The translations under genes and the position numbers were made by a program. DNA of 64,000 nucleotides, taken from assembly GCA_028278525.1 (NCBI GenBank), contig JANQEE010000017.1, positions 66,274 through 130,273 of the forward strand. Direction: 5' to 3'. The notes beneath the pieces were generated by a model. The model searched no databases and was not told the origin of the DNA. It saw only the letters and a program-made list of their open reading frames with translations. The stretch's first letter is position 1. Every line of letters starts with the position of its first letter. Source of the stretch: Minwuiaceae bacterium. Its GTDB lineage: Bacteria > Pseudomonadota > Alphaproteobacteria > Minwuiales > Minwuiaceae. Shown here piece after piece: positions 12,331 through 61,513 of this stretch.

Positions 12331-12353
12331 TCGCGCGTTAGCGGGCGACGGCC

Positions 12354-43647: not shown

Positions 43648-44772
43648 TTAAGCGGCGGCCGGCCCAAGGATATCTTCGGGGCGGATCGAGTCCCGCAGCA
43701 GCACACCAGCCTCGGCGCTCCAGCATATGAACTCGCGCTCGCCCATCTTGCGGACGCTGTCCGACAGATGCCGGTGCTGCTCGACATGCACGTATTGGCC
43801 GGGCGCCAGCTCAAACACGTCGGTCTCGAGCGTGCCGAGAAACTCCGTCGCGATATAGCTGCCCTCGACCCGGTTCGCCATGTCCGGATGGTCGCCGGTG
43901 TGCATCAGGTCGGCGCGCACCGAGAACCAGACGGTCTTGCCGACAGGCACGTGCTGGATGTGCGACGGCACTTTGACATAGAACAACTCGCCCAGGCTTT
44001 CGACAAACACCATCGTGCCCGAGCGCGATTTCACGATGCCCTGGAACAGGTTGTTGTTACCGATGAACTCGGCGACGAACTTGGTCTCCGGATGCTCGTG
44101 CACCTCGCGGCTGGTGCCGATCTGCTGCACCACCGAATCCGACATTACCACGACCTTGTCGGCCATCGACATGGCTTCCTGCTGCGAGTGGGTAACCATG
44201 ACGAACGTGATGCCGAGTTCGCGCTGGATGCGTTTAAGTTCCACCATCATGGTCTGCCGCAAGTTGAAGTCCAGCGCTCCCAGCGGCTCGTCAAGCAGCA
44301 GCACGGTCGGCCGGCTGATCAGGGCGCGAGCCAGCGCCACGCGCTGTTGCTGACCGCCCGATAACTCGCCCGGCCGACGGCTGGCGAAATCGTGCAGGCC
44401 GACCATCTCCAACATTTCCCAAACCCGGTGCGCCCGCGAATCCGGCTCCATGCCCTTCATTTTCAGGCTGAACTCGACGTTCTGAAACACCGTGCGATGC
44501 GGGAACAGCGCGAACGACTGAAACATCATCGACGTGTCGCGCTGCGAGGGCGGCAGGTCGGTCACGTCTTTGCCGCGGATGAAGATGCGCCCTTCGGTGA
44601 CCTCCTCCAGCCCCGCCATCATGCGCAGTGTGGTGGTTTTGCCGCAGCCCGACGGCCCGAGCATTGAGACGAATTCGCCCCGTTCGATTTCGGCGTTGAA
44701 ATCGATCACCGCCCGCGTGCCGTCCGGATAGGTCTTGTAGGCGTTTTCGAGAACGATATCGAAATCAGTCAT
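43648..44772 (-). CDS. ABC transporter ATP-binding protein (PotA/MalK-type with C-terminal TOBE domain)
   Basis: It has Walker A (GPSGCGKTT), the signature LSGGQQQRVALARAL, and Walker B (LLLDEPL). It is convergent with the permease genes. Confidence 0.85.
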   Translation of the reverse strand: MTDFDIVLENAYKTYPDGTRAVIDFNAEIERGEFVSMLGPSGCGKTTTLRMMAGLEEVTEGRIFIRGKDVTDLPPSQRDTSMMFQSFALFPHRTVFQNVEFSLKMKGMEPDSRAHRVWEMLEMVGLHDFASRRPGELSGGQQQRVALARALISRPTVLLLDEPLGALDFNLRQTMMVELKRIQRELGITFVMVTHSQQEAMSMADKVVVMSDSVVQQIGTSREVHEHPETKFVAEFIGNNNLFQGIVKSRSGTMVFVESLGELFYVKVPSHIQHVPVGKTVWFSVRADLMHTGDHPDMANRVEGSYIATEFLGTLETDVFELAPGQYVHVEQHRHLSDSVRKMGEREFICWSAEAGVLLRDSIRPEDILGPAAA

Positions 44773-44832: not shown

Positions 44833-47658
44833 TCAATCGGCCGCGCGCGCCGCCGCCTGCACCAGGGTCCAGACGGTATCGAACGAAACCTCATCCAGGA
44901 CGCCATTCTGATTGAAGGCGCGCAGTTGCTGCACGGCATCGCGGATCGCTTCGTTGTCGCCGGCATGGCCTTCCAGCTTGTCCAGCGCTTCCGGCAACGG
45001 AATGTCGCGGGACCGCTTGGTGCTCATATGCTCCTGCACCAGCGCGTTGACGTGATCGTAGAGTTCGCGCATCGAACCGGCGGTGTACGGCCGGCCGATC
45101 AGACCGCGCAGGCCGTTGGCGTTGAAGCGTTGTCGCAGTCCCTCCGGCAACGACTGTGCGAAGCCCTCCAGCACTTCGCCAAGACCGAAGCCTTGCGTGA
45201 AGAGGCCGCGCAGCGTGTCGACGGTGCCGTCCTTGCCGCCACCGCCGCCATACATGCGGATCTGCGCGTTCTGCAGGGCGTTGCCCATGGCTTTGGCCTG
45301 ATCGATATGCACGTCGCGTTCGGCCTCGATGTAGAGCTTGGCCAGTTCGAGGAACGTGGCCGCCTCGTTGTATTTCTTCAATGCACCGGCTTTGGCTTCC
45401 AGCCCCGCCGCTTCGCTTTCGAGCATGCGCTGCGTGTTGGCGACCCGCAGGGTTTCAATCTCCATCTCGGCGCGGCCGACGGCGCCGGCCTCGCGCTCGA
45501 TCCCATCGGCCGCAATCTTCTGCGCTTCGCTGTTCGCCTTGGCGCGGGTCAGCGTCGCGTCGGATTCCAGCTCGGCCGCCTGCTTCCGGGCCTCGGACTG
45601 GACGACCACGTGCATGCGCGAGACCTCGGCCTTGCTCTCCTCGTCGACGCGCCGTGCCTCCGCGATCTTCTCCGCCTCGATCCGCTGCAGATCCTTGGCG
45701 CGTCCGGCATCGGCAACGATACGGACCGACTCGACGGCATGTTCGGCCCGCTCCTTATCGGCTGTCGTCGACAACCGCTCGACCTCGGCCTGCTCCAGTT
45801 CCCGGGTCTTGCCGACCAAGGCGATCTCGCGATTGCGTTCCTCGAGTTCGCGCGCCAGAAAGCGCTCGATATCCGCCTTCTCGCGCTCTTTCTCCTTGCC
45901 GATCAAGGAGATCTCGCGGTTCTTCTCCTCGAGTTCCAGGGCGAGCGAGGTGTCGATCTCGGCCTGACGCAGCTCGCGGTCCTTGCCGATCAACGCGATC
46001 TCGCGATCGCGTTCTTCCTGCTCACGGGCCAGGACTCGGCGGATTTCAGCGCGCTCGAGCTCCTGGGCCTTGGCCACCAGTGCAATCTCGCGGTCGCGCT
46101 CCTCCTGTTCGCGCGCCAATGCGCGCTGGATCTCGGCGGCCTCGCGCGCGCGGGTTTCCTGAAAGATCTCGGCATCTTTCTGAATCTGCTTACGCTCCAG
46201 CGCCAGCGCCTTTTCAATCTCTTCCTGCTCAACCTCCCAGCGCCGGTCCAGGATGTAGCGTTGCTGCTCCGAAAGGATGCGCGCCCGCTCGTTCGAAACG
46301 TCGTGTTCCTGCTGTGCCGCGGCCAGCGTCTCGTCACGGTCGATATCGAGCATCGCAAGCCTGGTCTCGAGTCCGCGCTTGCGCACCGACAGGGCAATCG
46401 CTTCGGAGACCTGGTGCCGCTCGTCGCGCGCCCGTTCTTCGGCCGCGGACACGGCGGTTTGACGGGCGATTTCCTCTTCCTGCCGTTGCCGCTCCTTCTG
46501 AGACAGCTCGATGTCCTTGCCTTTTTCGGCGCTCTCGCGCGCTAGATTTCGGGCGATTTCGGCCAGTTCCGCTTCGCGAGCCTTGTCGGTGAGTTCGATC
46601 TGCCGATCCCGCTCCGCTTTCTCCAAGGCAAGGTTTCGGCCGATGTTCGCCAGCTCTTCTTCCCGATTTTTCGCGATCAGAGCGATCTCGCGGTCCCGCC
46701 GCTCCTGCTCCACAATCAGGTCTTTCTGGATCTCGCGCGCCTCGCGCTTCTCAGCTTCTTCGGTGACGGCGATCTCACGTTCGGTGCGCAGACGCTCCAG
46801 CAGTTTTTCGTTGTCGATTTCCTTCTGCTCGACCGACAGGCGCTGGTCGAGAATATAGATCTGCTTCTCGCCGAGTTGCTTGGCCTGCTCGTTCGATACG
46901 TCCTTGTCCTGGTTCGCGCGGGCGAATGCCTCCTCGCGTTCGATCTGCAAAAGCTCGAGCTGGGTGTCGAGGTCCTTCTGGCGGATCGCCACGGTGGTAC
47001 GCTTTTCCGTGTCGTGCACCTTACGCCGCGCTTCGCTGGTAACCTCGGTGATCACCTTCAAGCCCTCGGCGTCGAAGACGTTGTCGCCCTTGAAATACTC
47101 CTTCGATGTCTGCTCGAGCGCGACGATGGTGACTTCCTCCAGCTCCAGTCCGTTGGCGCGGAAGCTTTCGATCACGTTCTCCTTGATATCCTTGGCAAAG
47201 GCGTCGCGGTTCTTGTGCAATTCCTGAAGCGTTTTGGTCGCCGCGTAACTGCGCAGCGCACTGATCACCTTGGCTTCCAGCAGGGTGCGCACTTTCTCGG
47301 CGTCGAATGTCTTTTCGCCCAAGCTGCGGCTGGCGGTGAGCACGTCGGCATCGTTGTGTCCGACATGGGCGTAAAGCTCTGTGTTGACGTCGATTCGGAT
47401 GTTGTCTGAGGTCAGGATCGCCTGCTCGCGCGACCGACCGACGATCAGCTTCATGGTTTCCAGCGAGACCCAGGTAACCTCGTGAAACACCGGCAGGACG
47501 ATGGCGCCCTTACCCAGGCAAACCTTCGTGCCCATGAAACCGGTGCGGATGAAGCACATGTTCGACGGCGCCCGTTTGTATATCCAGATCGAGATCACAT
47601 AGAGAATGGCGATAACGATGATCGCCGTGATCAGCAGGGTAATTCCGATCTCTAACAT
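44833..47658 (-). CDS. Flotillin/SPFH (band-7) family protein with long internal coiled-coil repeat array
   Basis: An N-terminal TM segment and SPFH domain are followed by about ten 29-aa tandem repeats (REQEERDREIALVAK..ELERAEIRRVLA) and a flotillin-like C-terminus. The gene is 941 aa. Confidence 0.75.
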   Translation of the reverse strand: MLEIGITLLITAIIVIAILYVISIWIYKRAPSNMCFIRTGFMGTKVCLGKGAIVLPVFHEVTWVSLETMKLIVGRSREQAILTSDNIRIDVNTELYAHVGHNDADVLTASRSLGEKTFDAEKVRTLLEAKVISALRSYAATKTLQELHKNRDAFAKDIKENVIESFRANGLELEEVTIVALEQTSKEYFKGDNVFDAEGLKVITEVTSEARRKVHDTEKRTTVAIRQKDLDTQLELLQIEREEAFARANQDKDVSNEQAKQLGEKQIYILDQRLSVEQKEIDNEKLLERLRTEREIAVTEEAEKREAREIQKDLIVEQERRDREIALIAKNREEELANIGRNLALEKAERDRQIELTDKAREAELAEIARNLARESAEKGKDIELSQKERQRQEEEIARQTAVSAAEERARDERHQVSEAIALSVRKRGLETRLAMLDIDRDETLAAAQQEHDVSNERARILSEQQRYILDRRWEVEQEEIEKALALERKQIQKDAEIFQETRAREAAEIQRALAREQEERDREIALVAKAQELERAEIRRVLAREQEERDREIALIGKDRELRQAEIDTSLALELEEKNREISLIGKEKEREKADIERFLARELEERNREIALVGKTRELEQAEVERLSTTADKERAEHAVESVRIVADAGRAKDLQRIEAEKIAEARRVDEESKAEVSRMHVVVQSEARKQAAELESDATLTRAKANSEAQKIAADGIEREAGAVGRAEMEIETLRVANTQRMLESEAAGLEAKAGALKKYNEAATFLELAKLYIEAERDVHIDQAKAMGNALQNAQIRMYGGGGGKDGTVDTLRGLFTQGFGLGEVLEGFAQSLPEGLRQRFNANGLRGLIGRPYTAGSMRELYDHVNALVQEHMSTKRSRDIPLPEALDKLEGHAGDNEAIRDAVQQLRAFNQNGVLDEVSFDTVWTLVQAAARAAD

Positions 47659-47713: not shown

Positions 47714-50035
47714 TCAGGATCGTCCGCCTCCCAGACCCGTACTCGACTCGACGCCGTTGGCCGGCGCACCGGCGCCGCGGCGTTCACCGTGGTCGAACAA
47801 TTCTAACGGCTTTCTGCTGCGCCGTTGTTTTTCGCGTAACGCCTCGGTGGCGCGCTGGTCTACCTCAAGCCGCGACCCGACCAACATCACACCATAATCG
47901 TCTCTCGCCTTCGCGGGCGAGACAAGACGGCGCGCCACGTCGGCCCGCACGCGCTCCACGTCGCGCTTCAGGGGATCGCCCCAGCCGCCGGCCCCGGCGG
48001 TACGAAAGATCACCCGGTCACCCGCCCCCACCCGGATATTATCGGCCTTGGCGGGCAGCGCTTCGCGCTCGCCGCCCTCGCGTTGCAGCCACTTCTGAGA
48101 GCAGGCGCCGGCCTTTCCGCCAAGAATGCCCCAGGGTGCGCTGGCATGGCGGTCATCGCTAATCGAAATCACGCCGGGTTCAAGCAGCAGATAGATCTTC
48201 TCGAAGGCGTTGCCACCGCGATGGGTGCCGGCACCGCCGGAATCGGCAATGCTTTCACAACTTTCGATGATAATGGGATAACGGCTTTCGAGATGCTCCA
48301 GCGAGGCGCTCGCGTGATGCGGCGACGCGAAATACCCGTCGGGGCCGTCCCCGTCCGGCCGGCCCGGCAGGCCGCCGGCGACGATATCGGTCAAATGAAA
48401 GGCTCGCCCGGACTTCCGGCGGCCGGCATATTGGAATGTCGGGTGGGCCCCATAGCCGGCGGCCGGCGCTTTGTCGGGCGCATGACGCCCAAGCGCACCG
48501 CCTAACACGTCGAACTGACGCGCCCGGGAATGGCTGCCTCCGCCCAATGCCGCCGGAAAATCCGGTTGGAGCAGCGAACCTTTCGGCAGATTGACGTGAA
48601 TGAGGTCGTGGAAGCCGTCGTTGGCCTGGATAGCCGGATCGAAAGCGGCGAACAAGTAAGCGCCGACGGACAACCGGAACAATCCGTCATGCAGATAGAA
48701 ATTTATCGGGCCGGGCGCCTGAGGCGCCGTCCCTGTCCAGTCGAAGTAGGCATTGTCGCCTTCGCGCCAGACCGTGAGCCGCATGCGGAAGGGCCCATTG
48801 CCAAGGCCATCGTCGTCGACCACGTCCTCGAACGTCTGCGGCTCTTCGGGCAGAGTCTGCGCGATCAACCGCCGCATCACATGGTTGGCACGCTCTAGCA
48901 GGCCGTCGCACGCCCCGCGGTAGCCATCGACGCCGAAGCGGGCGCAGAGCTCGACGACGCCCCGGGCGCCCGCCCGGCAGGCAGCGATCAACGCCGCCAG
49001 GTCGTGGTCGTTCATGTCAGCGTTGCGCGAATTGCCCCGCAGGATGTCGAGCGCTGCCTGGTTGGGCTGGCCGCGATCGTGAATCTTCACCGGCGGGATG
49101 CGCATCCCCTCGCCGAACACCGACGTCGCCGCCACCGGCCGGCTGCCGGCAACGGGACCACCGACATCCGCCATGTGGCCGTACATCGACGTGAAACCGA
49201 CGAGCGCGTCATCGAAAAATACCGGAACCAGAACCGTCCAGTCATTGATGTGGCTGACCGCTCCGCCGCAGCCATACGGATCGCTTTGCAGGATAACGTC
49301 GCCCGGATGCAGGTCGAAGTCGTTCGCCTTTAGCATCTCAGCGACATAGGAGCCGAACTGTCCGGCGATCATTCGTCCGCGCGGATCGGTGATGATCGCA
49401 CCGGCGTCACGCTGTCCGCTGATCGACGGCGATGCCGCCGACTGCAACAGAACCGCTTCCATCTCCCGCTGCACGTCGCGCAGCGCGCCTTCGACCACGT
49501 CGAGGGTGATACCGTCGACCGCCACGGGGACGCCCGCCGTCGGCAGGAATGCCCCGCCCTCGCCCGCGGGCGGCGCCTTCTGCCGCTGCCCATCGCCGGC
49601 CGCCGGCGCCGGCTCGATCTGAGCGACCGGCCGCACGTCGTCGCCGAACATCCCGATGCAGCGGCCCAGGGCGTCATCTACCGCCTCGCTCATTGCCTCG
49701 CCCTGGCTGCGGCCGATCCGGGCGCTGCCGAACTGCTCCTTGACGATGCCGTCGACGGTGAGCCGGCACAGCACGGTGACGACGCCGCGCTCCACCTTGT
49801 GTTCGACGATCTGCGACGACCAGCCGCCGCCAAACCGGGCAAGCAGCATATCCGTGGCGCCACCGCGAGCGCGTGTCGGCGTGGAGAGTGTGGTTGCGGA
49901 CGGCTGCTCAGCGGTTTGGGCTGCTGTCGCCGCACCGCCCATCTGTGCCGAAAACACACGCTCGAACTGCTCGCGATTTGCCTTCAGCAAATCGTCAAGC
50001 GAGGTCCGGCTGCTATGTGGTGTCATCTCGGGCAT
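47714..50035 (-). CDS. Hydantoinase B/oxoprolinase (HyuB) family protein with a roughly 150-aa N-terminal extra domain
   Basis: The HyuB core is recognisable (DPYGCGGAVSHINDWTVLVPVFFD...). The N-terminal extension is homologous to the freestanding ORF at 56308-56781. Confidence 0.85.
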   Translation of the reverse strand: MPEMTPHSSRTSLDDLLKANREQFERVFSAQMGGAATAAQTAEQPSATTLSTPTRARGGATDMLLARFGGGWSSQIVEHKVERGVVTVLCRLTVDGIVKEQFGSARIGRSQGEAMSEAVDDALGRCIGMFGDDVRPVAQIEPAPAAGDGQRQKAPPAGEGGAFLPTAGVPVAVDGITLDVVEGALRDVQREMEAVLLQSAASPSISGQRDAGAIITDPRGRMIAGQFGSYVAEMLKANDFDLHPGDVILQSDPYGCGGAVSHINDWTVLVPVFFDDALVGFTSMYGHMADVGGPVAGSRPVAATSVFGEGMRIPPVKIHDRGQPNQAALDILRGNSRNADMNDHDLAALIAACRAGARGVVELCARFGVDGYRGACDGLLERANHVMRRLIAQTLPEEPQTFEDVVDDDGLGNGPFRMRLTVWREGDNAYFDWTGTAPQAPGPINFYLHDGLFRLSVGAYLFAAFDPAIQANDGFHDLIHVNLPKGSLLQPDFPAALGGGSHSRARQFDVLGGALGRHAPDKAPAAGYGAHPTFQYAGRRKSGRAFHLTDIVAGGLPGRPDGDGPDGYFASPHHASASLEHLESRYPIIIESCESIADSGGAGTHRGGNAFEKIYLLLEPGVISISDDRHASAPWGILGGKAGACSQKWLQREGGEREALPAKADNIRVGAGDRVIFRTAGAGGWGDPLKRDVERVRADVARRLVSPAKARDDYGVMLVGSRLEVDQRATEALREKQRRSRKPLELFDHGERRGAGAPANGVESSTGLGGGRS

Positions 50036-50046
50036 GGCTACACAGA

Positions 50047-52092
50047 CTAGGCTAACGCGCCTTCCGGCGAGATCAGGATGTTGAGATGTGGGTCGACGCG
50101 GGCGCTATGGCCCGGGTGTACGACGGTTGTGGTATCCGCCTGTATGACAATGGCCGGGCCGCGCAATACGTGACCGGGCCGCAGCAAAGCGCGGTCGTAG
50201 ACTTTGGTGTTGACCGGCTGACCGTCGAAATGGACATGTCGTTCCTCGATTACCGCCGCCGCCTGGTCTTCAACACCGTCGTCGGGACGGCGCATTACGG
50301 TCGCGCCCGTGGCCGCACTGCCAATAGCACGAAGATTGACAAGCTCAACCGGCTGGTCGGGGCGGAACCCGAACTGGCGCTCGTGCCGAGCGGCGAACCG
50401 TTCGGCCATGTCGCGCACACCGCTTCCACTAAGGGTGTCCAGGCTGAGCGATAACGACAGCTCGCGCTCCTGTCCGAAAAAGCGCAAATCGGCTTCGAAC
50501 GTCAGCCGCTGCCGGTCATTATCTATACCCTCTGCGGCCAGCCCATCGCGGGCATAGCGCCCAAGTTTCGTCAGGATTTCGCCAACCCGCCCGTCGCTCA
50601 GCTCGGCCAGTTCGCGCATCACCGCCTGCACGAACTCGTTGCGCGTATCCGCCTGCATGTAACCCTGGGCCGCTAACACTCCGGCGTTCGGCGGTACGAC
50701 AACCGGGAAGCTGCCGACCAGTGCCGCCAGGGCGTTGGCATGCAGCGGACCGGCGCCACCGAACGCGATCAACGCCGCGTTGTTCGGCGCGATTGCGCCG
50801 CGCGCCGCGATCCGCCGCAACGAGCCGGCAATGCGTTCGTTGGCGACATCGACGATACCCTGTGCCGCGCGATGCGGCTCAACCTCGAGCTCCCGGGCGA
50901 CACGTCCGACCGCTTCTTCGGCGGCGCGGATATCCAGCGTCATGCCGCCGCCAAGCAACGTCGCAGGCAGCCGGCCCAGCAAAAGATTTGCGTCGGTGAC
51001 GGTCGCCCGGTTTCCGCCGCGGCCGTAGCATGCCGGTCCAGGCACGGCGCCGGCGCGCCCAGGGCCGACGCGCAACGCACCGGTCATCGGCACATGGGCA
51101 AGCGAATCGCCGCCGGCGTCGACACTGCGCACATCCATTGCCGCCACACGCAGCGGATAGCCGTCGACCACGGCCTGCCTGCCGATAGGCGCCTCGCCAT
51201 CCCGGATCAGCGACAGAACGGTCGACGTGCCGCCCATGTCGACAGCGAACGTGTCCGACAGGCCGGCCTGGCGGGCGATTTGCGCCGCCGCGGCGACACC
51301 ACCGGCCGACCCTGACGCCATGGCCGTCGTTGCCACTTCCGCGATCTGATCCGCGTTGGTCGCACCGCCATCGGCACGCATGACGCTGATCTGCGCATTG
51401 CCGCCGAGTTCCCCCAGCCGCCGACCGAAGTCGGCCAGATGACGGCCGATGCCCGGACCGACATAGGCGTTCAGCGCGGTCACCAGCGTGCGCTCATACT
51501 CGCCGCACTCGCGGCGGGTTTCCGATGACAAGTATACCGGCATGTCCTCGTCGATCTCGCGTACGATGTCGCGCAGCAGCCGCTCGTGCGCCGCATTGGC
51601 ATAGGCATGCAGCAGCGAGACCGCAATGGCGTCAACGCCGAGCTCGACCAACTCCTGCACCACGCCGCGCGCTGCCGCTTCGTCGAGCGGCGCAACCACC
51701 TCGCCACGCGCGTTCATGCGTTCCGGCACGCCTCTTGTGAACTCGAGATCGACCAGTGGTGTAGGCTTGGCCATGGGCTGCGACGACCGCATCTCGCCTC
51801 GCGCCAGATGCAGCACTTGTTCGAAATTCCTGGTAACCAGCAAACCAACCCTGGCGCCCCTGCGTTCGAGGAGAATATCGGCGGGTGCCGTGGTGCCGTA
51901 GCGCACGCTGGCGATATCGCCGGGCGCGATTCCTGCTTCGGCGATCAGACGCTCGATCCCCATCAGCACTGCCGCTGCCTGGTCATCCGGTGTGGTGGGG
52001 GTCTTGAGCAGCCGGACGGCGCCGTCCTGCTCGTTGAAAAGGAGCAGGTCCGTGAACGTACGTCCGACCTCGATGCCAAGCCGGCAACTCAT
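50047..52092 (-). CDS. Hydantoinase/oxoprolinase A (HyuA) family protein
   Basis: The gene is 681 aa and lies 12 bp upstream of the HyuB gene on the same strand. Confidence 0.85.
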   Translation of the reverse strand: MSCRLGIEVGRTFTDLLLFNEQDGAVRLLKTPTTPDDQAAAVLMGIERLIAEAGIAPGDIASVRYGTTAPADILLERRGARVGLLVTRNFEQVLHLARGEMRSSQPMAKPTPLVDLEFTRGVPERMNARGEVVAPLDEAAARGVVQELVELGVDAIAVSLLHAYANAAHERLLRDIVREIDEDMPVYLSSETRRECGEYERTLVTALNAYVGPGIGRHLADFGRRLGELGGNAQISVMRADGGATNADQIAEVATTAMASGSAGGVAAAAQIARQAGLSDTFAVDMGGTSTVLSLIRDGEAPIGRQAVVDGYPLRVAAMDVRSVDAGGDSLAHVPMTGALRVGPGRAGAVPGPACYGRGGNRATVTDANLLLGRLPATLLGGGMTLDIRAAEEAVGRVARELEVEPHRAAQGIVDVANERIAGSLRRIAARGAIAPNNAALIAFGGAGPLHANALAALVGSFPVVVPPNAGVLAAQGYMQADTRNEFVQAVMRELAELSDGRVGEILTKLGRYARDGLAAEGIDNDRQRLTFEADLRFFGQERELSLSLSLDTLSGSGVRDMAERFAARHERQFGFRPDQPVELVNLRAIGSAATGATVMRRPDDGVEDQAAAVIEERHVHFDGQPVNTKVYDRALLRPGHVLRGPAIVIQADTTTVVHPGHSARVDPHLNILISPEGALA

Positions 52093-52389: not shown

Positions 52390-52917
52390 ATGGCAGGCGA
52401 CAGTTTGAACGACAGGCGAACCAAGTTCTGGATCGGCGTGATTGCGATCATCATCCTGTTGCTGTTTCTATATTTCTATCAGCCGTTCGAGACCTACCTG
52501 ACGGCGCACATCCCGCACATCCATTTCTCCAATGTGGTGTTCTGGTTCGCATCCCTGGTCGGCGTTGTCGGCTATGTGATTGCCCAATGGCAGTCGTTCA
52601 AGACACAGATCTTCCGTTCCGGCGGCGAACTCCGCGTCGACAACCTGCTGTTCGACACGCTGCAGGCCTCGATCTTGATCGCGGTCATTTTCGCCGCCGG
52701 CGCGACATTGCAGGCCGTCGTGATGCTGGGCGAGCACCTGGTGAACCGCGGACCGATCATCGACCCGTCATTCGGCGGAAAACTGCTGGCGATCGTCCTC
52801 CTACTGATCCTGGCGTTGTTGTTCTGCCTGCTGCATTACGTCGTGCGGGCCTTTCGCGACGGCTGGACCAGTCGTCGCACGCACCCGGCGTCTGCACGTC
52901 CGTCCGGCGCCGACTAG
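52390..52917 (+). CDS. Small 4-TM membrane protein (LFLYFYQPFE family, paralog B)
   Basis: It shares the LFLYFYQPFE, ATLQAVVMLGEHL and HYVVRAFR blocks with the 38243 ORF. The start was trimmed to MAGDSLN. Confidence 0.55.
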   Translation: MAGDSLNDRRTKFWIGVIAIIILLLFLYFYQPFETYLTAHIPHIHFSNVVFWFASLVGVVGYVIAQWQSFKTQIFRSGGELRVDNLLFDTLQASILIAVIFAAGATLQAVVMLGEHLVNRGPIIDPSFGGKLLAIVLLLILALLFCLLHYVVRAFRDGWTSRRTHPASARPSGAD

Positions 52918-53984: not shown

Positions 53985-53988
53985 GCGC

Positions 53989-54318
53989 TTAGTTTCCCCG
54001 CTGCGAGAGTGTCGCCAACAGGGCCGGATCGAGCGGGTCGCAGTCGCGCCGGCTCAGCCGCTCAGCCTCGGCCCACAGTTCGCCGAGATTGTTGATGATG
54101 GCTGTCTGCCCGGTCCGGCCGCGCAGGATGTAGGCGTTGCCCGACCAATCCTTCAGCGACAACCCGTAGGGCCGCAGCACGGCGTTGAGTAGGCGCGTGC
54201 GGGTCTGACGCTCGCGATGCCACGTGTGACGCTGCTGCCGGCTACTGAACGCCGCCGGGCTGGCGGCGCTGTCCGTCCAGTGATCGCGCCCGCCAATGAT
54301 GCCGCAAAGGCTGCACAT
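53989..54318 (-). CDS. Hypothetical small protein upstream of the CobW-like gene
   Basis: The 109-aa ORF is on the same strand and lies 5 bp upstream of the GTPase gene. No homology was recognised. Confidence 0.3.
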   Translation of the reverse strand: MCSLCGIIGGRDHWTDSAASPAAFSSRQQRHTWHRERQTRTRLLNAVLRPYGLSLKDWSGNAYILRGRTGQTAIINNLGELWAEAERLSRRDCDPLDPALLATLSQRGN

Positions 54319-54327
54319 ATGCTGGTG

Positions 54328-55404
54328 TCACTCAGCCTGCGCCTCGGCACCGGCCTCAACGCGCGGATAGCGGCGGGCAAAGTCGTCGGCGATGGCGTCG
54401 AATGTCGTGAACGTAACGCCGGCGTGGCTGTCGATGTATTCGAACAGCCGCTCCAGCATAAGCAACACCTGCGGACGGCCCGACACGTCGGGATGGATGG
54501 TCATGGTGAACACCGCGTAGTCGTACTCGCGGTACACCCAATCGAACTGGTCACGCCACAGTTCTTCGATATCGCGCGGATTGACGAAGCCGAAGCTGTT
54601 CGGCGCCGCCTTGATGAACATCATCGGCGGCAGGTCGTCGAGGTACCAACTGCCGGGTATGTCGATCAGGTCGGTTTCCTCGCCGCGCACCAGCGGCACC
54701 ATCCATTCGTCCGGGTGCTTGGAATAGTCGATCGGCGTCCAGCTATCGCCGACCCGGACGTAAAATGGATGAAAGTCGTTGTTCATCAGGCTGTGGTCGT
54801 ACTTGATGCCCTTGGCCAGCAGCAACTCGTTGGTCACCGGGCTGAACTCCCACCAGGGCGCGACGTAACCGGTCGGACGGCGGCCGCTGAGGCGCTCGAT
54901 CAGGTCGATGCACTTGTCCATCACCCGCTCTTCCTGCTCGGGCGTCATGGCGATGGGGTTTTCATGGCTATAGCCGTGCATGCCGATCTCATGGCCGGCA
55001 TCGACGACCATGCGGCACTGCTCGGGAAAGGTCTCGATCGAATGGCCGGGAATGAACCAACTGGTCGGAATTTTCATGCGGTCGAACAGGCGCACCAGTC
55101 GCGGTACGCCGACTTCCCCCGCAAACAGGCCGCGCGAAATATCGCAAGGCGAATCCTCGCCACCGTAGGAGCCGAGCCAGCCTGCCACGGCGTCGACGTC
55201 GACACCGAATGCGCAAAAGATTTCCTTCTTGCCGCCTGCCCTCGAGACATGCCGGCTGCCAATGGCCGAACTGCCTGAGCTACCCGACGGCGTGACCAGT
55301 GAGCGCGGCTGATAGCGCGGGCCGGTCGGTCCGTGTCGGTCCTGTGCGCCATAGCCGGCGCGTCCCGAATATACCGAACCCGGACGTCCGGAGTTCTCGT
55401 TCAT
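54328..55404 (-). CDS. Polysaccharide deacetylase-family protein (PuuE allantoinase-like cyclic-ureide hydrolase)
   Basis: It has NodB-type motifs (FGVDVD..., HGYSHE). The start was trimmed to MNENSGR. The N-terminus is Ser/Gly-rich. Confidence 0.7.
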
Positions 55405-55552
55405 GTCGTCGCTCCAACGCGTGGAAAACCGGTAGACCGGAAGCCTTCCATGTCGGCCGCGCAACGGCAAGAGGAAGATCGCACATTAACGCCAGCCAAA
55501 GGCCGGGCTGGCGCGTTCGTGAATCCTGCTGCATCATCTGCTCTGTTGCAGG

Positions 55553-56296
55553 GTGCGGCCAACATTTGGCAAGGAGGTTGCGATGGCGGAGTGGGAACGC
55601 GAAACGCGCCACGACTACGAGAGCAAGGGTTTCGCCCAGCGCTCCGGTTACGGCGACAAACCGGCATTGTTGGTCGTCGACTTCATCAACGGGTTCACCG
55701 ATCCGACGACACCGTTGGGCGGCGACTTCTCGTCCGAAGTGGCGGTGACCGCCGACCTGCTGCGGGTGTTCCGCGCCGCTGCGCTGCCGGTCGTCTTTAC
55801 CACCGTGGTTTACGAGCGCGACCTGAGCGATGGCGGCGTCTTCATCAAGAAGGTTCCTTCGCTCGCAATCCTGACCCGCGGTTCGCCGATGGTCGATGTC
55901 GACGAGCGCATCCGCCCGCAGCCCGGCGAATATGTGGCGGAAAAAAAGTTCGCCAGTTCTTTCTTCGGCACGGACCTCGACACCTATCTGAAGGCGCGCG
56001 GTGTCGATACGCTGGTCATCACCGGCTGTACGACAAGCGGCTGCGTCCGCGCCTCCGCCGTGGACTCGCTGCAGTACGGATACATCACCCTGGTGGTTCG
56101 CGACGGCGTCGGCGACCGGGCGCAGGGACCGCACGACGCCAACCTGTTCGATATCGATGCCAAATACGGCGACGTCGTGCCGTCGAGCGACGTGCACGCC
56201 TATCTGAAGTCGATCACGTCGGGCGGCGGTTTCGCGGAACGCGCGCAGGCCGAGTTCGGCGCATGGTGGAACGAGAGCCGGCGTTCAGGCGGTTGA
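55553..56296 (+). CDS. Isochorismatase-family cysteine hydrolase (N-carbamoylsarcosine amidase-like)
   Basis: The catalytic-Cys block ITGCTTSGCVRAS is present. It is the third paralog of this family in the window. Confidence 0.85.
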   Translation: MRPTFGKEVAMAEWERETRHDYESKGFAQRSGYGDKPALLVVDFINGFTDPTTPLGGDFSSEVAVTADLLRVFRAAALPVVFTTVVYERDLSDGGVFIKKVPSLAILTRGSPMVDVDERIRPQPGEYVAEKKFASSFFGTDLDTYLKARGVDTLVITGCTTSGCVRASAVDSLQYGYITLVVRDGVGDRAQGPHDANLFDIDAKYGDVVPSSDVHAYLKSITSGGGFAERAQAEFGAWWNESRRSGG

Positions 56297-56307: not shown

Positions 56308-56781
56308 ATGAGCAACGGACGGGAGACAGGGCTGACGTCGGCATTCGACGAACTCCTGGCGCGCAACCGTCAGCAGTTCGACGGCCTGTTCGGCGGCGCC
56401 GGGTCGCAGCCCCGACGAGCAAAAAGCATAACTCGGCCTGCAGCGACCGATCCCACATTCATCGTACTCGATGCCTTGACCTCACCGACGGCGCGCGCCC
56501 TGGACACTCGGTTCGAAGACGGCTGGCACTATGAGATCCTCGAACAGCGGGACGCCGGAGATGAGGTGGTCGTAACATGTCGCCTGGCCGTTCCCGAGCT
56601 CGGGACAACGGTAATCGGACACGGACGGGCCTCGCGCGGTGCAGGTGACCGGGTCGAAGGCCGCCTTGGGGATATCCCGTTTAGTGCCGGCGCGGCGACG
56701 GACAATACCACTCCGCGGTCCGCGTTGCAGGCGGCGGCGGAGATGGCGCTCGCCGACTGCCGCGCGCAGATCGACGCGTGA
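56308..56781 (+). CDS. Small protein of unknown function homologous to the N-terminal extension of the HyuB at 47714-50035
   Basis: FDELLARNRQQFDGLF...VVVTCRLAVPELGTTVIGHGRASRG aligns with LDDLLKANREQFERVF...VVTVLCRLTVDGIVKEQFGSARIGRSQG. The ATG lies 12 nt after the isochorismatase stop. Confidence 0.55.
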   Translation: MSNGRETGLTSAFDELLARNRQQFDGLFGGAGSQPRRAKSITRPAATDPTFIVLDALTSPTARALDTRFEDGWHYEILEQRDAGDEVVVTCRLAVPELGTTVIGHGRASRGAGDRVEGRLGDIPFSAGAATDNTTPRSALQAAAEMALADCRAQIDA

Positions 56782-56791
56782 ATATGACCTC

Positions 56792-57028
56792 CTACGACAC
56801 CGCCTTGTCGCCTTGGCCGAACTGGTAGGACATGTCGTCCTTGTGCACATATTCACCGCACCAGTCGGTCGGCAAGGTGATCGGCCAGGCGCCAATCCCG
56901 TTCTCGCGCCGTTCCGGCGGCATCCGCCGGCAATAACCCAGCGCTTTCGCGTCGTCGCGGCTACTGGCTTCCTCCGTGGTCTGGAAATGCCACCAGCGAC
57001 AGTCGGCGCAGGTCAGTCGTGCGGTCAT
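56792..57028 (-). CDS. Small Cys-containing protein downstream of hyuB (possible zinc-ribbon accessory subunit)
   Basis: MTARLTCADCRWWHF...C...C is about 78 aa. It ends 74 bp downstream of the HyuB gene on the same strand. Confidence 0.35.
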   Translation of the reverse strand: MTARLTCADCRWWHFQTTEEASSRDDAKALGYCRRMPPERRENGIGAWPITLPTDWCGEYVHKDDMSYQFGQGDKAVS

Positions 57029-57101
57029 CCTCTGTATCTCCCGTCCTGGACTGGCCGGCTTATACGACCGATGGCGATTGACAGCCGCAAGCCGGGCCGG
57101 T

Positions 57102-59036
57102 TCAGCCTGTACCAACCCGCCGGCGCGCGTCCTCACCGTTCTGCGCTGAGCTGCCGGTCGACATGCCGCCTGTCATCCATTTCTGGAAAACCGGCGTCTT
57201 TGGCGGCTCGAGATTGGTATCGGCAACACAGCGCGCCTTCAATTCCTCGACCGTACCACCGAAATCGAACAGCCGGACATCGCCGCGATCGCTTTCCATC
57301 TGCCGCCGCAGATCCGTCGTCGCTTTCTGATCCACCCGCCCATCGGCATCGATGACCACGCCATAGCGCCTGGCGCCGTCGCGCGTGACCAGGCCGCGTT
57401 CGACATCGAGAGCGACCTTTGCCGCATCGCGTTTCAGCGGGTCGCCCCAGCCACCGCCACCCCAGGTATTGAAGTAAAGCGTGTCGCCGGCCTCGACCTT
57501 GATGCGGTCGCACTTCGATTCCATCCATTGACTGCTGCCGTCGGCCCGCACCATCAGCTTGGTGCTGCGGCCGCCCGGCAGCCCACCATTGACGCCCCAG
57601 GGATGGGTCAGCCAGCGGTCGTCATGGATCGAGATCTCGCCGGGTTCGAGGAACTGGTAGCCCATCGACAGGCCGTTGCCGCCGCGATGCAGGCCCGGTC
57701 CGCCCGTATCGGCAATGGTCTCGTACTTCACGATACGCAGCGGGAAATAAGCCTCAAGGAACTCGTTCGGCACATTGGTGAAGGCCGGCCATAGCGAATG
57801 TCCGTCAGGACCGTCGCCTGCCGGACGGCCGGGAATGCCGCCGAAACCAATCTGGTAGAGCTGGTACCACTCGCCATGCCGGTCATGGCCCGAATACATG
57901 AAATGCGGGCTGTCCGAGAAACCGGCCGCGGCCAGCGCATCCGGCGAGCCCTGACCCAGCAAACCACTCATGATGTCGAAGATACGGCCCAGCATGTGGG
58001 TGCGGCACGACAGCGCCGCCGGCCGCACCGGCTTGAGGATCGAGCCGCGCGGAATGCGCACCTCCACAAGGTCGTAGAAGCCGTCGTTGAACAGAATCTG
58101 CGGATCGAACAGATTGATGAAGAAGGCGCCGAGGAACATCTTGAACATCTCCTCGTTGAGGAGAAAGTTCACCGAGCTGATCGACTGCGGATCGGTGCCT
58201 TCGAAGTCGAAGATCGCGGTATCGCCCTCGCGCCACAGAGTGCAGGCGATCTTGTACGGGCCCATGCCGACACCGTCGTCGTCGATGTAATCCTCGAAGT
58301 ACTGTTTCGTTTCGGGGATCACCATTTTCAGGATCTCGCCCATGGCCCGCTTGTTGCGATCCAGCATCTCGTCCATGGCGGCGATGAATGTGTCGACGCC
58401 GAAGCGTTCGCAGATCTCGTTGACCCGACGTTCGGCAAGTCGCAGGGCGGCAATGATGGCGTTGAAGTCGGAACGATTCCAATCCGGCAGCCGGCAATTG
58501 CGCAGGATCAGCTCGAGGATTTCCGTGTTGAGCTCGCCGTTTCGATAGATTTTGGTCGGCGGGACTTGGATGCCTTCCTCGAACACCTGCGCGGCGTCGG
58601 TCGGCAGGCTGCCCGGCACCTTGCCGCCGATGTCGGTCATGTGGCCGAACATCGCCGCCCAGGCGACCATGCGGCCGTCGATGTAGATCGGCATCATGGT
58701 CAGCCAGTCGTTCAGATGGCTGATGGCGCCGTTGCAGGAATAGGGGTCGTTCGTCAGGAAGATATCGCCTTCCTCGATTTCGCCGTCGTAGCCCTGCTGA
58801 AAACCGTGGAAGAAAGAGCCGAACTGGCCGACGACCATCTTGCCTTCGTTGTTGGCGATCATCGGGAAGGCGTCGTGTTGCTCGCGGATACCCGGTGACA
58901 TGGCGGTGCGGAACAGCACCGCATCCATTTCGGTACGGGCGTTGCGGAGCGCGTTCTCGACGATATCGAGGGTGATCGGATCGACCTCGACCTTGCGGAA
59001 CGGCGTGGCGTTGCGTTGGATGATCCTGGCTGGCAT
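57102..59036 (-). CDS. Hydantoinase B/oxoprolinase (HyuB) family protein
   Basis: The gene is 644 aa and carries the HyuB block DPYSCNGAISHLNDW. Confidence 0.9.
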   Translation of the reverse strand: MPARIIQRNATPFRKVEVDPITLDIVENALRNARTEMDAVLFRTAMSPGIREQHDAFPMIANNEGKMVVGQFGSFFHGFQQGYDGEIEEGDIFLTNDPYSCNGAISHLNDWLTMMPIYIDGRMVAWAAMFGHMTDIGGKVPGSLPTDAAQVFEEGIQVPPTKIYRNGELNTEILELILRNCRLPDWNRSDFNAIIAALRLAERRVNEICERFGVDTFIAAMDEMLDRNKRAMGEILKMVIPETKQYFEDYIDDDGVGMGPYKIACTLWREGDTAIFDFEGTDPQSISSVNFLLNEEMFKMFLGAFFINLFDPQILFNDGFYDLVEVRIPRGSILKPVRPAALSCRTHMLGRIFDIMSGLLGQGSPDALAAAGFSDSPHFMYSGHDRHGEWYQLYQIGFGGIPGRPAGDGPDGHSLWPAFTNVPNEFLEAYFPLRIVKYETIADTGGPGLHRGGNGLSMGYQFLEPGEISIHDDRWLTHPWGVNGGLPGGRSTKLMVRADGSSQWMESKCDRIKVEAGDTLYFNTWGGGGWGDPLKRDAAKVALDVERGLVTRDGARRYGVVIDADGRVDQKATTDLRRQMESDRGDVRLFDFGGTVEELKARCVADTNLEPPKTPVFQKWMTGGMSTGSSAQNGEDARRRVGTG

Positions 59037-59059: not shown

Positions 59060-61513
59060 TCAGCTTGACGGACGAATGAGGATGTTGCCGACCCGGTCGA
59101 CCTCGCCCGTGTGGCCGGGCAGGATCAGGGTGGTCGAATCCATTTCCATCACGATTGCCGGTCCGTTGATACGGTCGCCGACGCGCAGACCGGCGCGGTC
59201 ATAGATCTTGGCCGTCTGGTCCCTGTCCTCGACAAAAACCTGCGTTTCCTCAATCTCGGCGCGGGCCGGATTGCCGTCGCCCTGTGGGAGTTCCTCAGCC
59301 TGCGCCGCCGTCTCTTCACCCTGTACAAGCGCCCGCAGATTGTATAGCTCATGCTCCGCATCGAGCTTGAACGTGAAAAGCTGCTCGTGCATCTGGTCGA
59401 ACTGCTGGGAGATGTTGGCGAGGCCGTTGGCGCGGAACTGCTCGGGCGTGGCGTCGACCGTAAGGCGCATGCCCTGCCCGCCATAGCGCAGATCGATCTG
59501 GTAAAGCGTCGACTGCAGCTCGCGCGGCACGCCCTCGGCGTCGAGCGTTGCGGCGGCGCTTTCCGCCAATTCCTCGAGGATCGTCAGAACCTCGCCGTCG
59601 CTGGTCTCGGAAAAGCGGCGCACGAAGGTGCGCGATGCTTCGTCGCGCACCCGCGTCGTCGCGTCGCCGTAGGCGCAAAGCACGCCCGGCCCGGGCGGAA
59701 TGATCACCGGCCAGGAGTTGCTCAGCTTGCCGAGCGCATTGGCGTGCAGTGGACCGGCGCCGCCAAAGGCGACCAGCGCGAAATCGCGCGGGTCGAAGCC
59801 CTGCTCGACCGACACCAGGCGCAAGGCGCCGAACATGTTCTCGTTGACGATATCGATGATGCCGGCCGCCGCCTGCTTCAGCGACAGGCCGATGGCATCC
59901 GCTACCTTCTGCACCGCCTTTTCAGCCCGGGCACGGTCAATCTGCATGTCGCCACCCAGACGCTGGCTTGCCGGCAGGTAACCCAGCACCACATTGGCGT
60001 CGGTCACCGTCGGCTCCTCACCCCCCTTGGCGTAGGCCGCCGGGCCGGGTTCGGCGCCGGCCGACTGCGGGCCGACGCGCAGTGCCTTGGTCAGTTCCGG
60101 CACATAGGCGATCGAGCCGCCGCCGGCGCCGACCGTGCGGACATCGATCGACGAGGCGCGCACGGTCACGTCGCCGACCCGGGTCTCCCGACGGGTTTGA
60201 GCCACGCCGTCCTGGATCAGCGCCACATCGGTCGAAGTACCGCCCATGTCGAAGGTCAGTAGATTGTCGTGGCCCGCCTGGCGGGCGATCCAGATCGCCC
60301 CGGAGACGCCGCCGGCGGGGCCGCTCAACAGCAGGTTCACCGGCGCCGCCTTGGCCGCCTCGGCCGATGCCAGGCCGCCGTCGGAGCGCAGGATGTTGAG
60401 CTGCGCGCCGTTCATGCGGCGGTTCAGTTCGCTTTGCAGGTTCTCGATATACTTCGACACCACCGGACGGATGTAGGAGTTGACCACCGTGGTTTCGGTG
60501 CGCTCGTACTCGTACATCTCCGGGATCACCTCGGATGAGATCGACACCGGAACGCCCGGCATGATCTGCTCGGCGATGCTGCGCACGCGTTGCTCATGCG
60601 TGCCGTTGGTGTAGGCGTTCATCAGCGATACCGTCAGCGCCTCGACATTGCGTTGCTTCAGTCGCTCAAGATCTTGCCGCAGCCGGTCTTCATCCAAGGG
60701 TTCGACGATTTCGCCCTTGGCGCCGATCCGTTCGTGCGCTTCGATCGTCAGTTCCAACGGCGCCAGCGGCTCGCTTTTGTTGAAGATCACCCAGCCGCCG
60801 AGCCCCCCCGGCACGTAGGAGCGGGCGATCTGCAGCACCTGCTTGTAGCCCTCGGTCGCGACCAGACCGACGAGGGCGCCGCTCCCCGTCAGTACGGTGT
60901 TGGTGGCCACCGTTGTGCCATGCATCACCTGGGAAATTTCATGCGGTTCGATGCCGGCCTGCTCGCAGATCCGCTCGATGCCGTTCAACACCCCGATCGA
61001 GGAATCCTGAGGCGTCGACGGCACTTTGGCGGTGTAGGGATGACCGGTGCTCTGATCGATCAGAAGTAGATCGGTGAAGGTGCCGCCGACGTCGACGCCG
61101 AGGCGATAGCCGGTTCCCGCCGTCGTTGCCCGGCGCGGCCGCGGCGATGGCGCCACGCCGGGCCGGGCGCGCACCGCCTTTGGCGCTTCGCGCGTCTCGG
61201 CCGGTTCGCGGGCCCGGGCTTCAGGCGCCGGCGATACGGGTGCCTTACGCTCTGCCGGTGCGACCGGTGGCGCGATCGTCGGAGGAGCGATCCTAGGCGG
61301 TGGCGCGATCGTCGGCGGAGACGCCACCTCGGCTTTCGGCGAGGACGGACGGCGATCCTGATTGTCGCTACGGCCGCGTTGGTTCGGCTCTGTTCCCCCG
61401 GCCCCACTGCGCTGTGGCGTGCCGCGACCGCCGCCAAGCTTGTCCCATTCGTTATTCAAGTCCGACAGATGATCGTCGAACCAGCTTGTCAGGCGATCGT
61501 CTTTCGATGCCAT
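59060..61513 (-). CDS. Hydantoinase/oxoprolinase A (HyuA) family protein with Pro-rich N-terminal extension
   Basis: The HyuA core begins around GYRLGVDVGGTFTD. The N-terminal roughly 150 aa is low-complexity (IAPPPRIAPPTIAPPVAPAERKAPVSPAPE). The likely start is MASKDD (ATG complement at 61511-61513) with an RBS (ggggga). Confidence 0.85.
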   Translation of the reverse strand: MASKDDRLTSWFDDHLSDLNNEWDKLGGGRGTPQRSGAGGTEPNQRGRSDNQDRRPSSPKAEVASPPTIAPPPRIAPPTIAPPVAPAERKAPVSPAPEARAREPAETREAPKAVRARPGVAPSPRPRRATTAGTGYRLGVDVGGTFTDLLLIDQSTGHPYTAKVPSTPQDSSIGVLNGIERICEQAGIEPHEISQVMHGTTVATNTVLTGSGALVGLVATEGYKQVLQIARSYVPGGLGGWVIFNKSEPLAPLELTIEAHERIGAKGEIVEPLDEDRLRQDLERLKQRNVEALTVSLMNAYTNGTHEQRVRSIAEQIMPGVPVSISSEVIPEMYEYERTETTVVNSYIRPVVSKYIENLQSELNRRMNGAQLNILRSDGGLASAEAAKAAPVNLLLSGPAGGVSGAIWIARQAGHDNLLTFDMGGTSTDVALIQDGVAQTRRETRVGDVTVRASSIDVRTVGAGGGSIAYVPELTKALRVGPQSAGAEPGPAAYAKGGEEPTVTDANVVLGYLPASQRLGGDMQIDRARAEKAVQKVADAIGLSLKQAAAGIIDIVNENMFGALRLVSVEQGFDPRDFALVAFGGAGPLHANALGKLSNSWPVIIPPGPGVLCAYGDATTRVRDEASRTFVRRFSETSDGEVLTILEELAESAAATLDAEGVPRELQSTLYQIDLRYGGQGMRLTVDATPEQFRANGLANISQQFDQMHEQLFTFKLDAEHELYNLRALVQGEETAAQAEELPQGDGNPARAEIEETQVFVEDRDQTAKIYDRAGLRVGDRINGPAIVMEMDSTTLILPGHTGEVDRVGNILIRPSS

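Follow-up and report, generated by a model that had tools for sequence, protein, structure and literature searches.

Among the ATP-dependent enzymes with HyuA/HyuB-type subunits, small extra (gamma) subunits exist in the acetone/acetophenone carboxylase superfamily, and acetophenone carboxylase also combines paralogous HyuA/HyuB-like subunits, with which the names of the NCBIfam models agree. To our knowledge, all described members of the Rad52/single-strand annealing protein (SSAP) superfamily act on nucleic acids, nearly all of them by annealing single-stranded DNA. That superfamily is defined by a sheet-plus-helix arrangement together with a beta-hairpin, both of which are tied to DNA binding (PMC11783212). 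Here we describe a 64,000-nucleotide stretch of DNA from Minwuiaceae bacterium, an alphaproteobacterium (assembly GCA_028278525.1, contig JANQEE010000017.1, positions 66,274 to 130,273 of the forward strand; called the window below), in which a module with a Rad52-like core occurs both as a free-standing 157-residue protein, smallX (56308..56781, plus strand), and at the N terminus of a HyuB-type subunit, HyuB1 (47714..50035, minus strand). In this module a disordered linker joins a conserved amphipathic helix at the N terminus to a truncated core of the Rad52/Rad22 family, made up of a helix, a three-stranded sheet, and a crossing helix. It is conserved as an accessory to one alphaproteobacterial clade of ATP-dependent ring-opening enzymes of the HyuA/HyuB type, a clade related to caprolactamase, N-methylhydantoinase, and acetophenone carboxylase. 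We have high confidence both in the Rad52-type identity of the domain and in its status as a HyuB accessory module.

The initial annotation of the window had noticed that smallX aligns with the N terminus of HyuB1, and the likeness holds up well. BLASTP of smallX against the first 175 residues of HyuB1 gave 32% identity over 111 columns at E=7e-9, with HyuB1 residues 11 to 113 aligned; the motifs quoted in that annotation (ELL..NR.QF and VVTCRL) are present, and the significance at the profile level is much higher still. When the whole window was searched with tblastn, smallX and the HyuB1 N terminus matched only each other (E values of 7e-9 and 2e-6), and a hidden Markov model (HMM) of the family likewise found just these two copies. 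Residues L16, L17, F24, W73, V89, C91, L93, R107, G113, and C151 are invariant in the joint family alignments, and the GC content by codon position is of the coding type in both smallX and the HyuB1 extension. Taken together, this shows that smallX and the first ~130 residues of HyuB1 are paralogous copies of one module. A database search returned four close homologues of smallX, and an exhaustive profile search returned many more.

Structure predictions made with AlphaFold2 (AF2) agree with this pairing, in that both proteins show an N-terminal helix, a disordered stretch, and a core of helix, three strands, and helix, with predicted local distance difference test (pLDDT) values of 75 to 93 in the cores and below 40 in the linkers. 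In smallX the conserved amphipathic helix spans residues 8 to 28 (56329..56391, plus strand; TSAFDELLARNRQQFDGLF) and is predicted at low confidence, although it is also recognized by a helix HMM; residues 29 to 59 are disordered, and the Rad52-like core occupies residues 60 to 156 (56485..56775, plus strand) with pLDDT above 90. Its elements are a helix at 60-69, strands at 74-83, 86-95, and 100-109, and a helix at 135-156, with a low-confidence hairpin inserted at 116-127. The corresponding helix of HyuB1, residues 13 to 35 (49931..49999, minus strand; beginning SLDDLLKANREQFERVF), has a pLDDT of about 65 and scores 31.6 bits (E=5e-8) with the helix HMM. A low-confidence stretch separates it from the HyuB1 core at residues 60 to 129 (49649..49858, minus strand), which is delimited by AF2 and by alignment to bona fide bacterial Rad52 proteins, lacks the hairpin insert, and is built from a helix at 60-68, strands at 72-82, 85-94, and 97-106, and a helix at 111-129, with pLDDT of 75 to 87. 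A disordered Pro/Ala-rich linker (residues 134 to 172; 49520..49636, minus strand; pLDDT about 26) then leads to the catalytic domain.

The 773-residue HyuB1 protein therefore reads, from its N terminus, as helix, Rad52-like core, linker, and Hydantoinase_B catalytic domain. The Pfam Hydantoinase_B model (PF02538) is matched in full, positions 1 to 519 of 519, by residues 174 to 688 (441.7 bits), with ~170 residues extra. In its paralogue HyuB2 (57102..59036, minus strand), which has no Rad52-like domain, the same model begins at residue 19 (496.2 bits), and so the extension is a genuine feature found in HyuB1 alone. Of the named NCBIfam models, caprolactamase beta comes nearest to HyuB1, at 243 bits far below the equivalog cutoff of 1000. 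Taken over the full length of the protein, the AF2 model is poor (pLDDT 61), with a beads-on-a-string layout.

The fusion to HyuB is native. When one genome per species was scanned, 52 related loci were obtained, all from uncultured Alphaproteobacteria (Xanthobacteraceae, Rhodospirillaceae, and Hyphomicrobiales) except for one SAR324 bin and two bins named only to the proteobacterial level; the carriers of the module are a group of soil and marine Alphaproteobacteria. In ~44 of 50 related loci a single open reading frame (ORF) of 745 to 800 residues contains both the domain and HyuB. The full-length fused protein has, in addition, at least 120 homologues of 747 to 784 residues that match it at 55 to 87% identity and 97 to 99% coverage; at source these are named "N-methylhydantoinase B" or "hydantoinase B/oxoprolinase family protein". 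The catalytic domain of HyuB1 is ~61% identical to the fused HyuB of other loci. GC content at third codon positions (GC3) is 0.83 in the extension versus 0.76 in the catalytic part. The suspicion that the true start lies downstream and that the N-terminal region is an annotation artefact can thus be set aside on the coding GC3, the intact frame, and the homologues. The linker differs in length and sequence among orthologues, and residues D14, D15, L16, L17, N20, Q23, F24, D25, and F28 of the helix are invariant or nearly so in 51 orthologues. The helix HMM finds exactly two sites per locus, which are the N termini of the two paralogues. Some HyuB proteins, P0181 and P0185, carry the N-terminal helix and a DL.SASL motif on a linker without a Rad52-like core, which suggests that the N-terminal peptide may be a separable module.

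Database homologues of the HyuB1 N terminus have to be read with care. A word-indexed search with it returned 43 proteins, mostly short, as if the free form were its common state. We rejected that idea, since the tails of the short proteins run into the HyuB motif LDTVSLDLIENALRNA and the breaks are frameshifts in long-read metagenome-assembled genomes. In three contigs from long-read metagenomes, only a change of frame within the GC-rich linker sets the small gene apart from hyuB, and these contigs also have split hyuA and flotillin genes. Similarly, P0141, a candidate fusion of isochorismatase and smallX, proved to be a frameshifted read-through. The sources concerned (L002-L004, L022, L046, L055, and P0141) are long-read bins in which frequent frameshifts split hyuA, hyuB, flotillin, and cobW; such frameshifts therefore account for spurious "free-standing" domain proteins and for the spurious isochorismatase fusion in protein databases. 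Recognizing that many "free-standing" homologues are artefacts of this kind corrects a trap in the databases.

The initial annotation had left the domain unrecognized, and a direct search of Pfam and NCBIfam still gives no match for smallX; in HyuB1, residues 68 to 132 match the Pfam family Rad52_Rad22 (PF04098) at 18.8 bits, where the gathering score is 20.3. Threshold or sub-threshold matches to this Pfam family are found for 9 of 42 and 8 of 51 family members (best E of 1e-5), and one homologue only bore a precomputed Rad52 hit. While the window proteins themselves remain below the Pfam threshold, the family profile and hhalign recover the relationship. The profile was searched against 1.84 billion representative proteins and found 556 of them (cluster representatives) at E<=1e-3, 165 of these at E<=1e-10. 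Among its matches are P0169, P0187, and P0188, at E values of 3e-13 to 7e-12, which score 31 to 45 bits on Pfam Rad52_Rad22. These three and human RAD52, the latter identical residue for residue to PDB entry 1kn0 over 211 residues, were made into a small Rad52 set, and hhalign of the family against this set gave 98.8% probability and E=8e-17 over 76 columns. The small alignment was needed because hhalign of the family against the single human RAD52 sequence gave no match (probability 0.2%). Among PDB sequences a profile search picked up only AcrIF5, weakly and over a short stretch (E=0.0065), a match that we regard as uninformative.

The family and Rad52 have in common the motifs LN..FG..WS.E..EH, V.V...L, FG.A, and A...AL.RC...(F/L)G. 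RAD52 was the top-ranked fold in Foldseek, and the three-stranded beta-sheet crossed by an alpha-helix that marks the superfamily is present in the predicted structures. On the profile matches, the hhalign result, and the common motifs, we therefore take the core to be a divergent, truncated Rad52/Rad22-family core with the order alpha-beta-beta-beta-alpha. P0169, the bona fide bacterial Rad52_Rad22 protein closest to the family, is encoded at positions 8001-8585 of L058/L059 in an island unrelated to HyuAB, with DUF6744, a MoxR-type AAA ATPase, and a VWA protein as neighbors and transposase genes nearby. In PHROGs, 10 of 16 family members weakly match phrog_37405 (best E of 2.4e-5), a phage family of unknown function.

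The core is truncated relative to the characterized proteins. In the alignment and the AF2 models no segment corresponds to the Rad52 beta-hairpin, and a disordered linker precedes the first core helix; the low-confidence hairpin of smallX sits elsewhere, between strand 3 and the last helix. Also without a counterpart in the alignment is the GxGLELW segment, which in bacterial Rad52 members comes after the core. The conserved, basic residues of the single-stranded DNA groove (R55, Y65, K152, R153, and R156 in human RAD52) are not retained: R55 and Y65 have no counterpart in the family alignment, R, A, T, G, K, S, N, or D may stand at the equivalents of K152 and R153, and the R156 position is mostly acidic. 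Core isoelectric points (pI) have medians of 5.4 to 6.5, versus 8.6 for the human core, and the smallX core of the window has a net charge of -7 and a pI of 4.6. With the hairpin and the conserved basic groove residues missing from a core that is neutral to acidic, we infer that single-strand annealing has probably been lost.

A third copy of the core is found outside the window. In every related locus with enough sequence, a second, distant HyuB paralogue, encoded by an ORF of 723 to 777 residues, ends in a Rad52-like core that follows a Pro/Ala-rich linker tens of residues long. It was seen in nine loci (L006, L007, L009, L011, L012, L013, L014, L021, and L033), Illumina assemblies among them, with coordinates of 14914-15216 in L006, 14940-15245 in L011, and 14973-15281 in L033, and hhalign relates this core to the Rad52 set at 97.7% and to the smallX/HyuB1 family at 98.1%. 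HyuB2 of the window has no such C-terminal tail and is a different paralogue, 53% identical to the N-terminally fused type and ~30% identical to the C-terminally fused type. The core is thus joined to HyuB subunits by flexible Pro/Ala-rich linkers of 40 to 70 residues, at either terminus. Fused and free forms are both real, in ~44 of 50 and ~40 loci, and a core fused at either HyuB terminus as well as free is a much stronger Rosetta-stone signal than the initial annotation saw. Its proposal of an accessory domain of the HyuAB system stands, on the N- and C-terminal fusions and on the free form within a conserved cluster; the accompanying suggestion, that the free form serves the extension-less HyuB2, finds no support.

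The initial annotation also placed smallX just upstream of the hyuA2-hyuB2 operon. In fact the operon occupies 61513 to 56792, read on the minus strand, and smallX, convergent with it, lies beyond its 3' end. smallX follows an isochorismatase-family hydrolase gene (55553..56296, plus strand; Pfam Isochorismatase, 122 bits), with its start codon 11 nucleotides past the isochorismatase stop at 56296, and the two genes are probably translationally coupled. An alternative ATG at 56263 would give a 172-residue form, as in public databases (P0001). As a gene, smallX is conserved in ~40 related loci. Wherever it occurs, the distant members P0087 and P0184 included, it shares the strand of the isochorismatase gene and lies immediately behind it, and smallX always co-occurs with a fused HyuB. 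In four loci (L005, L016, L028, and L049) smallX is present and the next 2.6 to 8 kb of fetched sequence contains no second HyuA/B pair; in four others (L015, L025, L032, and L039) the fused HyuB and the flotillin gene occur without smallX and the isochorismatase gene. Because the free copy tracks the fused HyuB and the isochorismatase gene in this way, and because of the four loci without a second pair, the idea that it supplies HyuB2 is unsupported.

The genes around the fusion form a conserved string on one strand, in the order hyuA, fused hyuB, a flotillin gene of 850 to 941 residues, and an ABC ATPase gene. In the window these are HyuA1, the partner subunit encoded immediately upstream of HyuB1 (50047..52092, minus strand; Pfam Hydant_A_N, Hydantoinase_A, and Hydant_A_C), whose closest NCBIfam model is caprolactamase alpha, far below cutoff; a 941-residue flotillin-like SPFH protein directly after HyuB1 (44833..47658, minus strand; Pfam Band_7, with a weak match to NCBIfam FloT); and an ABC-transporter ATPase as the last gene (43648..44772, minus strand; Pfam ABC_tran and TOBE_2). 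The flotillin has an N-terminal transmembrane helix, an SPFH domain, and very long Glu/Arg-rich repeats of the EERDREIALI type, coiled-coil-like in appearance. The flotillin gene follows the fused hyuB gene in every related locus with room for it, and the ABC ATPase gene follows wherever the locus sequence reaches that far. Further syntenic genes encode a small membrane protein; a polysaccharide-deacetylase-family protein, a 109-residue protein, and CobW; the isochorismatase-family protein and smallX; a four-cysteine protein of 79 residues; and a second HyuA/HyuB pair.

On an Acidiphilium plasmid a hyuA-hyuB-isochorismatase triad, which recurs, occurs without the domain, and tblastn found the domain absent from the plasmids in PLSDB. 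N-carbamoylsarcosine amidase is a member of the isochorismatase family. The domain-less triad fits the known pathway order in which N-methylhydantoinase is followed by N-carbamoylsarcosine amidase (PMC4417704).

As to what the module does, the best explanation overall, to which we assign a probability of about 0.45, is that a Rad52 fold has been exapted as a tethered protein-assembly module of the HyuAB system. The core would probably act as a self-associating protein-protein assembly or docking module: tethered and free cores would associate with one another and so cluster HyuAB complexes, and the isochorismatase-family hydrolase that takes the HyuAB product might be held in the same assembly. 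Association of core with core is the most economical reading; self-association is a general behavior of Rad52-family cores. The presence of flotillin in the same gene string suggests recruitment of clients to membrane microdomains, and the assembly would probably sit at a flotillin platform next to the importer, because the fused hyuB gene always precedes the flotillin gene and then, in loci whose sequence extends to it, the ABC ATPase gene. The assembly mechanism in itself we put forward tentatively, as plausible and somewhat short of likely. Its most elaborate form, which we regard as unlikely, has the Rad52 fold domesticated as a ring- or oligomer-forming scaffold, with cores tethered to two different HyuB subunits and one free core organizing a multi-enzyme, flotillin-anchored catabolic metabolon beside the ABC importer.

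Several observations weigh against an assembly role. The hairpin and the C-terminal helices of RAD52 contribute to its ring contacts, and self-association is not guaranteed in a core that is without them. The free form has a conserved inserted hairpin of its own, the full-length HyuB1 model is compatible with the module either docking on the catalytic domain or staying apart from it, and the proposed link to flotillin is one of gene order only. Finally, genuine bacterial Rad52-like proteins are slightly acidic in the corresponding stretch too, so that charge is a weak argument against nucleic-acid binding.

Other explanations were weighed against the same evidence. The module might be an integral regulatory or catalytic small subunit, free or tethered, that occupies a defined site on HyuB or where HyuA and HyuB meet and controls the hydrolysis of ATP or the entry of substrate, like the small gamma subunits of acetone/acetophenone carboxylases. 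The NCBIfam models for acetophenone carboxylase subunits do match HyuA and HyuB here, fusion at either end of HyuB is what would be expected of a Rosetta-stone partner, and the very strong conservation of the N-terminal helix would suit a defined binding interface. Nevertheless, there is no sequence relation to acetone carboxylase gamma, since Pfam scans of smallX and 42 family members at E up to 1 gave no match to that subunit's family and none to any family but Rad52; linkers of 40 to 70 flexible residues at opposite termini better suit a loosely tethered module; closely related hyuAB-isochorismatase operons and HyuB2 of the window do without the module; and the gene to which the free copy is linked encodes the isochorismatase, not a HyuB. 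An integral subunit consequently strikes us as unlikely. A device that targets the enzyme to membrane microdomains, with the N-terminal helix and/or the core binding the 941-residue flotillin and without self-association, would explain why the flotillin gene comes after the fused hyuB wherever a locus has room for it, even in the four loci that lack smallX and isochorismatase, and the helix-only HyuB proteins P0181 and P0185 would be consistent with an independent targeting signal. With a C-terminal copy on the second HyuB that has no helix, and with gene adjacency as the whole of the evidence, we consider such a device quite improbable.

Retention of single-stranded nucleic-acid binding, with the enzyme moonlighting as a regulator in the manner of PutA or with RNA or DNA controlling its activity or localization, would be in line with the ancestry of the core, in that its homologues are known only to bind and anneal single-stranded DNA (PMC11783212). 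A basic residue is often kept at the human K152/R153 positions, in the ALRRC and ALAKC motifs, and the conserved cluster has no evident transcription factor gene. What is missing, however, is the beta-hairpin, which has been linked to DNA binding jointly with the sheet (PMC11783212); the basic positions are not conserved across the family, the smallX core is acidic as noted above, and three enzyme-tethered copies per cluster would be an unusual design for a regulator, all of which makes this reading very improbable in our view. There remains the notion that the module is a chance similarity, an artefact of ORF calling, or the functionless remnant of a decaying prophage recombinase. Several database homologues of the HyuB1 N terminus do come from frameshifted long-read assemblies, but the pairwise and profile-level similarity, the coding-type GC3, and the conservation of reading frames, synteny, and invariant residues in more than 50 species and at least 120 homologues refute it, and its chance of being right is negligible.

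HyuA2 (59060..61513, minus strand) has an N-terminal extension of ~135 residues ahead of the HyuA domains, with Hydant_A_N beginning at residue 165 of the GTG-initiated ORF; the extension (61106-61513, minus strand) shows by eye a putative short helix, LTSWFDDHLSDLNNEWDKL, and then a long Pro/Ala-rich linker. A 70%-identical relative, in L064, has a HyuA2 of 824 residues. The HyuA2 N terminus FDDHLSDLNNEWDKL was considered by eye to resemble the module helix, and a regular expression derived from the three helix sequences matches only those three sites in the window, that of HyuA2 included. The helix HMM, built from 147 family helices, did not detect it at E values up to 10, and the orthologous second HyuA proteins of related loci have no N-terminal extension, so the idea of a shared targeting helix on HyuA2 was dropped. 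When a metagenome scan was made with the HyuA2 N terminus, the matches were swamped by the conserved DVGGTFTD core pattern.

The four-cysteine gene of the window, cys79 (56792..57031, minus strand), encodes 79 residues, is convergent with smallX, and is the last gene after hyuB2. Its translation has no family match; in 39 orthologues C7, C10, C33, and C57 are invariant and CRWW, GYCRRFPP, and DWCGEY are conserved, and it is possibly a small metal-binding protein. The polysaccharide-deacetylase-family gene, the 109-residue gene, and the CobW-type GTPase gene (52914-55470, minus strand) form a module of their own: the same triad occurs at 11244-13503 of L113 (Rhizobium johnstonii pRL12), and on Rhizobium plasmids, at ~76% nucleotide identity, it adjoins amidase and cyclase genes, without HyuAB. 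Elsewhere the window contains two more isochorismatase paralogues (40% and 37% identity), a paralogue of orf212, the small membrane protein, and a second ABC ATPase (12342-13031, 36403-37005, 38267-38695, and 28676-29344), as well as a 341-residue ORF (62784-63809, minus strand) full of Gly/Asp repeats of the GGxGxD type, by eye like RTX calcium-binding repeats.

That a truncated Rad52 member is a conserved part of a metabolic enzyme system, in three architectures and in many uncultured Alphaproteobacteria, places this fold in an unexpected context. If the module does serve in assembly, it would be a new example of fold exaptation and would give a handle on the organization of HyuAB enzymes, the amidase that follows them, the giant flotillin, and the transporter; if the metabolon form of that idea is correct, bacteria would be organizing a pathway in a manner not described before, and the Rad52 superfamily would have its first role that does not involve nucleic acids; and if nucleic acid is still bound, it would be a new enzyme-regulator fusion. 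In any of these cases, an unannotated domain family with 556 cluster representatives merits a database entry. The module is at present mostly named "hypothetical protein" or hidden inside "N-methylhydantoinase B", and in the library searched there is no paper linking hydantoinase with Rad52 or with SPFH proteins.

Among known systems, the Rad52/Rad22 N-terminal domain of human RAD52, yeast Rad52, Mgm101, and the Rad52-like SSAPs of bacteria and phages has the same core fold as the module, with ~30 to 38% identity in hhalign to the bona fide bacterial members. The module differs from it in being without the N-terminal beta-hairpin and the C-terminal GxGLELW/helical segment, in not conserving the groove residues, and in having, ahead of a disordered linker, a conserved amphipathic helix of its own at the N terminus; its genes are fused to or lie beside that of a metabolic enzyme and are not part of recombination or phage modules. 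RAD52 motif-containing protein 1 (RDM1) joins the motif to an RNA recognition motif and so still concerns nucleic acids, unlike the module, whose partner is a catalytic subunit of the hydantoinase/oxoprolinase family. The gamma subunit of acetone carboxylase and the small subunits of acetophenone carboxylase are likewise small extra polypeptides of ATP-dependent HyuA/HyuB-type enzymes, but they have no sequence or fold relation to the module, which hangs on flexible linkers and can be present in as many as three copies.

The flotillin-associated rhodopsin cluster of Pelagibacterales likewise has a flotillin gene with metabolic and transport genes on one strand (PMC10308929). The clients differ, rhodopsin there and HyuAB here, and no Rad52-like module is described in that cluster (PMC10308929). 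Dockerin and cohesin, the docking domains of polyketide synthases, and the encapsulation peptides of microcompartments also place a short conserved terminal helix and/or a small domain on a long flexible linker, at either end of enzymes belonging to a single pathway; there is no homology to them, and no shell or cohesin-type partner was identified. The likeness is one of architecture only. The fold and the enzyme were each known before; what is new is their combination, in three architectures, with an apparent loss of the DNA-binding apparatus.

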